Part shown: positions 308 through 2,368 of the stretch, piece after piece
Layout of the letters: each line of letters starts with the position of its first letter
Numbering within the stretch: position 1 is the stretch's first letter
Assembly (NCBI GenBank): GCA_000434035.1
Contig: FR893524.1
Span: forward strand, 24,201-88,200
Source of the DNA: Clostridium sp. CAG:452
GTDB taxonomy: Bacteria > Bacillota > Clostridia > TANB77 > CAG-508
DNA: 64,000 bases
Direction: 5' to 3'
Program-made: the position numbers and the translations under genes
The notes under the pieces: model-generated
Seen by the model: only the letters and a program-made list of their open reading frames with translations
Told to the model about the DNA's origin: nothing
The model's database searches: none

Positions 308-2290
308 TTGGACAAGCAAAAAGCAAGAAAACGTATTGATGAATTAAATAAACTTACTGCATATTATGCTAAAAAATACTATGATGATGATGCACCAGAA
401 ATATCAGATTTTGAATATGATATGCTTATGAATGAGCTTAAAAACTTGGAAAAAGAATTTCCAGAGTTTATAAGCAAAGATTCACTAACTCAAAAAGTCG
501 GAGGAACTGTAAAAGAAGGATTTGAAAAGGTAACACATATTGTGCCACTTCAAAGTTTACAAGATGTGTTTTCTTTTGATGAGTTGTATAGCTTTGATGA
601 AAGAATGAAAAAATTTGATGATAATATTAAATATGTTGTAGAAACAAAAATAGATGGATTATCAGTTGCATTAGAATATAAAAATGGTGAATTTGTAAGA
701 GGTGCGACAAGAGGAAATGGACAAGTTGGAGAAGATATCACAGATAATTTAAAAACTATTAAAAATATTCCTAAGAAGCTAAAAGAAAACATAGATATAG
801 TAGTAAGAGGAGAAGTTTTTATATCTAAAAAAGACTTTGACGAATTAAATGAAAAGCAAGACGAAGAAAATAAATTTGCAAATGCAAGAAACTTAGCAGC
901 AGGTTCACTAAGACAGCTAGATAGTTCAATTACAGCTACTAGACCTCTTGATATTTATATTTTTAATGTTCAAAAAAGTGATACAATAAAATTTACATCA
1001 CATTATGAGTCTTTGTTATATTTAGAAAAAATAGGTTTTAATGTAAATCCTGTAAAAATATTTTGCAATAACATAAAAGAAGCGATAAAGGCAATAGAAA
1101 AAATAGGTGAAGATAGAGAAAAAATTCCATTTGGAATAGATGGAGCAGTTATAAAAGTTGATGATTTAAATTTAAGAGAAAAAATTGGTACAACATTTAA
1201 AGTGCCCAAATGGGCTATTGCATATAAATACCCACCAGAGCAAAAAGAAACAATATTAAAAGATATTGTTTGTAATGTTGGAAGAACAGGAGTAATTACA
1301 CCAATGGCAATACTAGAACCAGTAGTGGTTGCAGGTTCTAAAATATCCAAAACAACTCTTCATAATGAAGATTTTATAAAAGAAAAAGGATTAAAAATAG
1401 GTGACCATATATTAATACAAAAAGCTGGAGATGTTATTCCAGAGGTTGTAAAGGCATTGGTAGAAAAAAGAACAGGCAATGAAAAAGAATTTGAGATGCC
1501 TAAGACTTGTCCTGTTTGTGGAGCGGAAGCTGTGAGAGAAGAGGGAGAAGCCGCTGTAAGGTGTATAGGAGTTGAGTGCAAAGCTCAAAACTTAAGAAAC
1601 ATTATTCATTTTGCCTCAAAAGAAGGAATGAATATTGAAGGATTAGGCGAAAAAATAGTAGAACAGTTATATAACAACAAATTAATAGAAACAATTGCGG
1701 ATATATATTACTTAAAACAAGAAGATATAGAAAGCCTAAAAAAAGATGGAAAGAAATTTGCAAAAAACTTAATAGACGCAATAGAACAAAGTAAAAGCAA
1801 CGATTTAGATAGATTGATTTGTGCAATTGGAATAAGACACATTGGAACAAAATCTGCAAAAACACTTGCAAGAAGATTTAAAACAATGGAAAACTTAAAA
1901 AATGCTACATTAGAAGAATTAATAATGACAGATGATGTAGGAGAAATTACGGCAAGAAGTATTTATGAGTTTTTTAAACAAGAGCAAACACAAGATTTGT
2001 TAAATAGATTAGAACAAGCAAATGTGAATATGAAGCTAAAAGAAGAAACAAATAATGATAATAGATTTGAAGGAAAGACATTTGTATTAACAGGTTCATT
2101 AGAAAACTATACTCGTGAAGAAGCAAGCAATATTATAGAAAGTTTTGGAGGAAAAACTTCTAGCTCTGTATCTAAAAAAACAGATTATGTTTTAGCAGGA
2201 GAAGAAGCAGGAAGTAAACTAACAAAAGCAGAATCACTAGGAGTAAAAATAATAACAGAACAAGAATTTCAAAAAATGATTAAATTGTAA
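308..2290 (+). CDS. ligA: NAD-dependent DNA ligase LigA (TTG start)
   Basis: 660 aa with the adenylation motif KIDG, the Zn finger CPVCG...C, HhH repeats and a C-terminal BRCT domain. GGAGG lies 8 nt upstream of the start. Confidence 0.95.
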
Positions 2291-2368
2291 TTTGTGTGAG
2301 GGGGAATTCTAGGGACTGTCCCTTAAAATCACCAAACCTGGGGATTTTGGCGACTGTCCTGAATTCAT
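2282..2368 (+). repeat. Copy 1 of an ~86-nt intergenic repeat (second copy at 47166..47251)
   Basis: About 96% identical to 47166..47251. It contains GAATTC-tag-GGACTGTCC ... GGACTGTCC-t-GAATTC inverted termini. Confidence 0.9.

Follow-up and report, generated by a model that had tools for sequence, protein, structure and literature searches.

Element A at the end of ligA

The window analyzed here is a 64,000-nt stretch of contig FR893524.1 from Clostridium sp. CAG:452 (assembly GCA_000434035.1, positions 24,201 to 88,200, forward strand). In it, the DNA ligase gene ligA ends inside a short repeat that we call element A. An initial annotation, made from the letters of the window alone, had described this repeat as an intergenic unit of about 86 to 87 nt present in two copies. 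We characterized the family in the genome that contains the window (G000), in its closest relative (G015) and in further genomes of the genus. All of these genomes are metagenome-assembled, and genes were placed with a simple map of open reading frames (ORFs). Coordinates given without a contig number are window positions. The features at the two copies are as follows, with RBS standing for ribosome-binding site.

308..2290, + strand: ligA (Pfam DNA_ligase_aden, 293 bits); its final 9 nt lie inside element A
2282..2392, + strand: element A copy 1, full length at 111 nt; 100% identical over positions 1-111 to the copies at C16:224901 and C15:180885
2282..2288, + strand: left outer half of copy 1, AAATTGT, which looks resident or target-derived and is complementary to the 3' end of element A
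2289..2392, + strand: the stretch of copy 1 (positions 8-111) that seems to have been copied as a whole; identical over 8-111 at 7 G000 loci
2407..2646, + strand: 79-aa ORF without a Pfam family; its RBS begins 4 nt past copy 1
47166..47251, + strand: element A copy 2, which ends after about position 87 and has no right terminus

Element A supplies the last two codons and the TAA stop of ligA, and position 7 of copy 1 is the first base of that stop (2288-2290). Copy 2, of the 4-G / CCCTC / GGGGAC subfamily, begins 9 nt past a Zn_peptidase_2 gene (end 47156) and lies 20 nt ahead of a DUF5662 gene (47272). The context first described, with each copy just after the stop of a + strand gene and before another + strand gene and with copy 1 overlapping the last two codons of ligA, was confirmed. 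The three reported differences between the copies were also found; they are one extra G, T/C and C/G, and a repeat search aligned 68 nt at 97%.

Alignment of all G000 copies with their flanks gave a sharply bounded unit of 111 nt (AAATTGGAATTTGTGTGAGGGGGAATTCTAGGGACTGTCCCTTAAAATCACCAAACCTGGGGATTTTGGCGACTGTCCTGAATTCATCCGGAACTAAACAAATTCCAATTT), so that copy 1 had originally been called 24 nt short. When the query was widened by 20 nt on each side, most genomic copies went on matching at the right. The termini are a 14-nt inverted repeat, AAATTGKAATTTGT / ACAAATTMCAATTT (also written AAATTGTAATTTGT ... ACAAATTCCAATTT). GAATTC, previously taken for the end of the unit, is internal, and together with GGACTGTCC it is an arm motif. 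The palindromic build first described is supported. Between the termini lies a GC-rich hairpin core with two GGACTGTCC arm motifs. Its arms, CTAGGGACTGTCCCTTAAAATC and GATTTTGGGGACTGTCCTGAA, are inverted about a 4-nt loop, and each of the two holds a small 11-nt palindrome, GGGACTGTCCC.

At window positions 2000-2700 we found no terminator-like sites, and no promoter-like sites on the + strand. A GC-rich stem followed by a T run, as in an intrinsic terminator, is not present: the base of the element A stem is AT-rich and genes follow 3-60 nt downstream. A terminator or promoter role for element A was rejected for lack of signal in this interval.

A genus-wide repeat family

The G000 assembly (1.248 Mb, 17 contigs, 28.3% G+C, 93.8% complete) holds 33 element A loci at 92-100% identity. 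The match between the two window copies is therefore not due to chance, and the prediction of many copies genome-wide, made from two in 64 kb, was correct. Near full length to the right terminus is seen at 24 of the 33 loci, one of which lacks the left outer half. Six others are cut at positions 86-89 and one at position 104, and the last two carry a deletion exactly between two direct GGACTGTCC repeats. All loci are intergenic or reach into a gene end by at most 9 nt, as the proposal of a dispersed intergenic family had implied, and the right end mostly falls 3-60 nt ahead of the next start codon.

Of the copies on clearly skewed contigs, 20 point along the leading strand and 11 against it (binomial P = 0.15). 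About 90% of G000 coding sequence lies on the G-rich (leading) strand, which confounds transcription with replication direction, so orientation cannot separate RNA from DNA mechanisms. The strand asymmetry of G000 is itself pronounced: every 20-kb bin of the four largest contigs has a GC skew of +0.15 to +0.25 and 70-100% of its coding sequence on one strand.

Element A matches occur in 17 of 24 other genomes of the genus, at 78-97% identity and often in tens each. They were absent from 117 genomes of other genera of the same family (49 genera) and from 16 genomes of four other families of the order. Scanning public genomes for an exact 18-mer brought up more than 103 loci, every one of them in metagenome-assembled gut bins titled "uncultured Clostridia" or similar. 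Copies cluster by genome, with an identity of 0.946 within a record versus 0.838 between records, and the nearest neighbor of a copy came from the same record in 30 of 38 cases. Phage and plasmid collections gave no element A match. Neither did Rfam 15, searched with the window at gathering thresholds and with four copy-holding loci at E up to 1. Novelty had been made conditional on finding no known repetitive extragenic palindromic (REP), BOX or MITE (small transposable element with inverted repeats) family. No sequence match to such a family was found, but the kind of element resembles MITEs and REPINs (REP doublets forming hairpins). Element A is a real, genus-wide repeat family that was previously uncurated.

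Fold and covariation

Copy 1 folds over the whole unit as one hairpin, with an RNA free energy of -34.8 kcal/mol on the + strand (z -3.07) and -31.3 kcal/mol on the - strand (z -3.04); the DNA fold has a z of -4.44. We then ran RNAalifold on 49 full-length copies that differ from one another (G000, 16; relatives, 33). Columns 33-50 of this alignment are invariant by construction because the relatives were fetched by that pattern. The consensus hairpin has 40 pairs with 98.3% of cells paired, which none of 500 shuffles matched, and slid controls were 30-59% paired. The covariation score was 0.087 versus 0.048 in shuffles (0 of 500 reached it), and 7 pairs changed on both sides versus 3.8 expected (3 of 500 shuffles). 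The termini covary across species, for example AAATTGTAGTTTGTGT with ACACAAACTACAATTT, and the apical stem changes from CCA/TGG to CCC/GGG. In some genomes the apex is swapped for an unrelated hairpin. Covariation thus supports a single hairpin over the whole unit.

The inner stem TGAGGG/CCCTCA that had been suggested was rejected on covariation. In most relatives its variable base is A (CCCTAA), which gives a G-A mismatch, and in the covariation-supported fold this base pairs with the right arm instead (columns 53/81: UG in 19, AU in 16 and CG in 4 of 49 copies). A G.U pair in that stem had been read as a hint of function at the RNA level. Wobble cells are indeed strand-asymmetric, with about 97 G.U versus about 10 A.C counted from the 49-copy alignment, so one strand is favored. 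This asymmetry does not single out RNA, however, because single-stranded DNA hairpins tolerate G.T wobbles as well.

The two ends of element A and solo termini

No target-site duplication was found at element A copies. Left and right flanks differ within copies, which rules out duplications of 2 bp or longer, TA/AT included; the flanks weakly continue the inverted symmetry. We also rejected direct duplication of a palindromic target and insertion at the center of AAATTG|CAATTT, because the centers are inverted (GG...CC) and GC-centered solo sites are rare (6 of 126 exact sites).

The two ends behave unequally. Departures from AAATTG in the left outer 6 nt were seen in 8 of 32 rows, compared to 0 of 25 rows with departures from CAATTT in the right outer 6 nt (Fisher P = 0.007); in this count one locus was entered twice and another escaped the pattern. 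Among seven copies whose cores are identical, every one ends in CCAATTT; three start with AAATTGT, two with AAATTGG, one with AAATTGC and one with the unrelated TACAGAT. At C9:10747 the left outer half is unrelated, yet the copy is 100% identical from position 8 on. Because identical cores have differing left ends, copying seems to begin around position 8. The AAATTGK at the left outer end has the look of a resident sequence and complements the 3' end of element A itself.

The termini also occur alone. The 12-mer AAATTGKAATTT is near-palindromic, and the 12-mer AAATTG(G/T)AATTT is 8- to 18-fold above Markov expectation, only for the centers GG, GT, CC and AC (observed versus expected: GG, 23 versus 1.9; GT, 23 versus 2.3; CC, 22 versus 1.2). 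G000 has 38 solo terminus sites more than 140 nt from any element A locus. Thirty of them lie between genes, in a genome with 88% coding sequence, and 16 are joined by the inner flank of element A (AC before or GT after), against an expectation of about 3. The window contains one such site.

25463..25474, + strand: solo terminus site AAATTGTAATTT, intergenic, directly ahead of an RBS and ATG

Four solo sites lie at C12:5021-6715 of G000 among consecutive small genes of one operon, which encode an XRE-like regulator, a lipoprotein and membrane proteins. Each of these sites stands between a stop codon and the next RBS.

Turnover at orthologous sites

With flanks 91-100% identical between G015 and G000, 11 G000 sites could be resolved in G015; a twelfth falls on contig ends in this comparison. 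At all 10 resolved sites that are bounded by termini in G000, G015 has the terminus motif with other contents. Two are solo, two have termini with a 5- or 13-nt spacer and three hold a B-type core. The remaining three contain about 470 nt encoding a small lipoprotein paralogue, an element A of another subfamily and, in the opposite orientation, a truncated A plus B. The single G000 copy without a left terminus is absent from the orthologous G015 site. The lipoprotein paralogue lies between termini at the G015 counterpart of C17:225773, where G000 has element A.

B-type units, which occupy element A's sites in G015, consist of GTAG plus hairpin doublets and are GTAG-REP-like. A unit of this type is also present in the window.

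31596..31627, no strand: B-type unit, an inverted GTAGGGG ... CCCCTAC pair, like the B units nested in some A copies

Further states were seen at four of these sites and at the ligA site in G005, G012, G014, G021 and G023. G005 has arrays of 4-5 modules between the same termini, G014 and G023 have B doublets (GTAGGGGCGGG...CCCGCCCCTAC) at element A sites, and in G023 and G012 element A is inverted at the same site. Solo termini are kept across three genomes, and some sites hold unrelated genes without termini. Since the same termini enclose differing contents across genomes, the termini are old landmarks and the contents turn over.

The copy at C16:224901 differs from its G015 counterpart at 4 of 111 nt, compared to 5 of 1200 nt in the flanks (9-fold; P = 0.004). 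The G000 version, which matches the local master sequence, is shared by 7 G000 loci over 8-111; the G015 version is shared by none. This pattern is the signature of in-place replacement or conversion.

A third structured module of about 185 nt adjoins an internally deleted element A copy in G000 (C9:48688-48873). In G015 it has 85-88% matches at or within 2 nt of six contig ends (C26:2-190, C17:2-190, C18:1-167, C14:1-172, C23:1-120 and C10:1-119) and at five internal places, and it appears to be the abundant family there.

Transposases, recombinases and REP hairpins

Y1 transposase domains are present in 24 of the 28 genus genomes. G000 encodes two REP-associated tyrosine transposases (RAYTs), RAYT1 (C12:40292-41074, 260 aa) and RAYT2 (C6:66135-66815, 226 aa), which score 78 and 76.4 bits over the full NCBIfam REP_Tyr_transpos profile (cutoff 80). 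Built from 17 genus RAYT proteins, a profile had 4ER8 TnpA_REP as its sole PDB match (E 2e-4), across the HUH and YI..NP motifs, and H63, H65 and Y122 are invariant in these proteins. RAYT1 as a single sequence had no match in a PDB search. Both G000 RAYTs are intact.

Each RAYT gene is flanked by its own dispersed hairpin family. REP1 (GGGGAAAAAGGGGTCWGACCCCTTTTTCCCC) is a perfect 31-nt GC-rich palindrome with about 24 loose copies in G000. It usually lies 2-20 nt past a stop codon, and it stands on both sides of RAYT1 (C12:40279-40309 and 41133-41163). Inverted copies of REP2 (GCCAAAAGGGACGGGGAATTTTGGC) flank RAYT2 at C6:65999-66027 and 66819-66847; this family has 6 exact-core copies and about 8 by BLAST. 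Two REP1 hairpins lie in the window.

254..284, no strand: REP1 hairpin GGTGAAAAAGGGGTCAGACCCCTTTTTCACC, of the same family as the RAYT1 flanks
57917..57947, no strand: REP1 hairpin with apex GGGGACAGTCCCC, whose reverse complement contains the element A arm motif GGGACTGTCCC

RAYT1 orthologues (at least 49% identity) are found in 13 of the 28 genomes. They lie at one conserved locus in relatives, and the REP1 apexes read GGGG-WCWGW-CCCC. The REP1 variants of G000 include GGGGACAGTCCCC, the reverse complement of the element A arm motif. In G015 the RAYT1 locus is assembled with the gene gone and one degenerate REP1 left, and this genome has 3 element A matches. When G015:C7:55700-57700 is compared to G000 C12:40200-41200, the degenerate REP1 adjoins pyrE-like and pyrF genes in G015; G000 keeps RAYT1 but lacks these two genes at the locus.

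Profile searches of G000 gave no match to DDE_Tnp_1, rve, DDE_3, IS110 or the TnpB zinc ribbon, the first three being the only DDE Pfam families covered. Across the 28 genus genomes these profiles matched in 4, 11, 0, 3 and 0, respectively. No IS200 TnpA was found in G000, and self-BLAST and the small contigs showed no large multi-copy repeat or partner insertion sequence (IS). One large serine recombinase match was found (C16:182564-182998), in a 496-aa frame that we take to be typical of prophage or integrative and conjugative element (ICE) integrases.

Comparison with known systems

A REPIN is described as a pair of inverted REPs that are separated by a spacer and form a hairpin in single-stranded DNA or mRNA; REPINs show compensatory changes, singlet remnants, clusters and RAYT association (PMC3116915). 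An asymmetric REPIN excision product, with a tail complementary to the other end, was proposed to guide reintegration (PMC3116915). RAYTs usually occur as single copies, and Clostridia are among the bacteria for which Group 1 has been recorded (PMC5581495). In Pseudomonas chlororaphis, REPINs keep their position and their type changes with the predominant RAYT (10.1101/2024.10.14.618302).

By analogy, element A would work most like a REPIN, to which it adds MITE-like AT-rich termini and a docking motif. Both are multi-copy extragenic doublets of about 100 nt whose inverted arms form a long hairpin with compensatory changes. Both also have singlet remnants, clusters, genome-specific populations and no match in phage or plasmid collections. 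RAYT-type Y1 transposase genes flanked by REP hairpins are present, and the repeat type at one position changes over time. The trait that defines a REPIN, a cognate RAYT flanked by the same repeat, is absent because RAYT1 and RAYT2 are flanked by REP1 and REP2; what element A shares with REP1 is the 11-nt apex motif. Unlike REPINs, element A lies beside no RAYT gene, ends in AT-rich 14-nt termini and seems to have a resident docking motif. In place of a 20-25-nt REP, its arms contain an 11-nt palindrome, and it has CTAG and no GTAG box, which the B units do have. Its host is an uncultured Clostridia genus with 28% G+C.

Element A also resembles IS200/IS605 elements in the absence of target-site duplication, in one-strand hairpin dependence and in insertion beside a short specific sequence, and RAYTs belong to the IS200/IS605 superfamily. 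Target choice in IS200/IS605 is directed by the transposon's own sequence. The differences are that element A is a near-perfect foldback rather than two separate end hairpins, that its orientation bias relative to replication is weak (20:11) and that G000 has no IS200 TnpA or TnpB that we could find.

MITEs have terminal inverted repeats, as does element A, although its left outer 7 nt may be resident. They also have target-site duplications, which element A lacks, and an autonomous IS with the same termini, which was not found in the G000 metagenome assembly when three DDE families and IS110 were scanned. Correia elements of Neisseria (Correia repeat enclosed elements, CREE) carry a TA duplication. 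In contrast, element A has no target duplication, its ends behave unequally and no partner IS was found. The two are alike in being short, noncoding, bounded by inverted repeats, intergenic and often just upstream of genes, and in having internally deleted variants (PMC1797815, PMC3184786).

Neisserial intergenic mosaic elements (NIMEs) comprise dRS3 inverted repeats flanking more than 100 RS module families in dynamic arrays (PMC1797815). There, too, short inverted-repeat sites bracket many module families of 50-150 bp, the arrays are dynamic between strains and site-directed recombination was proposed (PMC1797815). Element A termini bracket A, B and other cores and arrays that differ between genomes. 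Unlike dRS3, they stand at the outer ends of an array only and not between every module, their sequence is unrelated, the modules are hairpins or REP-like units and there is no link to a phage recombinase.

How element A may spread

Element A is almost certainly a nonautonomous mobile or convertible element. As for its nature, we give roughly an even chance to a genus-specific REPIN/MITE-like hairpin element that turns over at fixed docking sites and is probably driven by RAYTs; dependence on RAYTs, taken by itself, we rate at even or slightly below. The copied unit would span about positions 8-111, that is, the GC-rich core of two inverted arms plus the invariant 3' end ...ACAAATTMCAATTT. Intergenic docking sites would carry the resident 5' motif AAATTGK, and an integrated element A would appear to have 14-nt inverted ends because this motif complements its 3' end. 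The docking sites would be old and common to several species, with their contents (none, A, GTAG-REP-like B, arrays or a small gene) replaced in place by the genome's current master copy. As the most likely engine we infer a single-strand-DNA HUH-type reaction by resident RAYTs, RAYT1 above all, with the hairpin as substrate and complementarity between 3' end and target guiding integration. Any influence on mRNA, through a stable hairpin between cistrons, would come second. In favor of this reading, element A abundance follows the RAYT1 orthologue: among genomes with element A data, at least 8 matches occur in 10 of 11 with RAYT1 versus 4 of 14 without (P = 0.004). Also in favor are the covarying hairpin, the end asymmetry, the lack of target-site duplications, the turnover at fixed sites, the want of DDE_Tnp_1, rve, DDE_3, IS110 and TnpB matches in G000, its two RAYTs with their own hairpin families, the REP1 apex that shares the arm motif, and the REPIN precedents cited above.

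A more specific form of this model, which we regard as possible but doubtful, is a homology-guided cassette system. In such a system, 7-nt AAATTGK sites, long fixed between genes in evolution, would capture single-stranded DNA hairpin modules by 3'-end pairing, and RAYTs would cut and join. Modules (A, GTAG-REP doublets, arrays and now and then small genes) could then be replaced, inverted or removed at one address, and sites would be overwritten by the master copy.

Several observations weigh against a RAYT-driven, docking-site element. No element A copy lies beside any RAYT gene, and a BLAST search of 27 RAYT loci (73 kb) with element A did no better than chance. Its top REP-related match scored 23.8 bits; the best scores of shuffled queries averaged 24.3, with a 95th percentile at 27.6. 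Homology of element A to the RAYT-flanking hairpins by BLAST is thus not above shuffles, and we keep the likeness as a motif-level lead. The match between A arm and REP1 apex is an 11-13-nt motif and is inflated by composition, since these are GC-rich hairpins in an AT-rich genome. The RAYT1 comparison ignores kinship, its cutoff of 8 was picked with the data in view, and the matches do not equal copy numbers. The A-rich genomes without RAYT1 are G014 (25 matches), G021 (20), G001 (11) and G019 (9), and in G014 and G001 the RAYT1 locus is assembled without the gene. The orientation bias is weak. AT-rich 14-nt termini fit MITEs and not described REPINs, and multi-copy IS elements often go unassembled in metagenome-assembled genomes. 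Finally, variability of the left end could instead reflect selection for stop codons, as several left-end variants create TAA or TAG for the upstream gene.

A rival explanation is a classical MITE, whose 14-nt termini would be bound by the DDE transposase of an autonomous IS missing from the assemblies and whose cores would be internal-deletion derivatives. The family is small, noncoding and intergenic, with inverted termini common to several core families; metagenome-assembled genomes often lose IS copies; and rve-type transposases occur in 11 of the 28 genus genomes. We nevertheless consider a MITE unlikely. Target-site duplications are lacking, the left outer half is not copied along with the rest, and the G000 assembly contains neither a large multi-copy repeat nor any DDE_Tnp_1, rve or DDE_3 match. 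None of these three families tracks element A, and the A-rich genomes G005, G006, G011, G012, G014, G018 and G021 lack all three. Moreover, differential deletion alone cannot explain old sites with cores near-identical to the genome's master copy. Another rival is recombination or gene conversion between dispersed hairpins, in which no dedicated transposase would be involved and the termini would serve as homology, for example in templated repair after hairpin or cruciform breakage. This mechanism fits a copy that took on the local master sequence in place while its flanks stayed near-identical, core swaps and inversions at the same site, internal deletions exactly between two direct GGACTGTCC repeats, and the homogeneity of copies within a genome. 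It makes no new loci by itself, yet G000 has 33 loci versus 3 matches in G015. The end asymmetry is not expected if conversion is symmetric, and 14 nt is very short for homologous recombination, so we judge conversion as the main process improbable.

Element A might instead be primarily an RNA-level element under selection, such as an intercistronic stabilizer, a processing site or a small RNA, with incidental spread. REP-type elements are reported to affect mRNA turnover (PMC3479197). The stable covarying hairpin, the excess of G.U over A.C and the tight fit between stop codon and next RBS inside operons are all consistent with this explanation. On the other hand, 11 of 31 copies are antisense to prevailing transcription, there is no terminator-like signal and no promoter-like signal on the + strand, and Rfam has no match. 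The contents of a given site vary freely among close relatives and include none, so no site depends on an A core. An RNA role is possible but would be secondary, and as the primary explanation it is distinctly improbable. Least plausible, and highly improbable in our assessment, is cassette exchange by a site-specific recombinase acting on the 12-mer AAATTGKAATTT, as is thought for dRS3 sites or pdif modules. The 12-mer is strongly enriched, 30 of its 38 solo sites are intergenic, the sites bracket varied modules (once a gene) and G000 has one large serine recombinase. That single enzyme sits in a 496-aa frame like that of a prophage or ICE integrase, however, and G015 has turnover products without a resolvase match. 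The termini of other species are non-palindromic (AAATTGTAGTTT / AAACTACAATTT) and the family persists there. Integration by site-specific recombinases would give direct sites, and the paired sites here are inverted.

The element A family offers natural experiments on REPIN integration and on RAYT function. Its ends are sharp, and an invariant 3' end faces a variable, complementary docking motif. Many orthologous sites are in different states across 28 genomes, and there is a sister pair of which one member lacks RAYT1. If true, the cassette model would give a concrete, testable rule for target selection in REPIN/RAYT systems. The family extends REPIN-like biology to small, AT-rich, uncultured gut Clostridia. 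Its repeats rewrite gene ends, as in ligA, and fill intercistronic spacers with hairpins of -35 kcal/mol. In a related assembly, repeats coincide with contig ends.

Other features of the window

Tandem 54-nt (18-codon) repeats, 93% identical between units, lie within a coding region at 10180-10354. The window also contains an RNase P RNA of class A at 60797-61146 (299.8 bits) and two tRNA genes, at 4596-4668 and 17670-17741.

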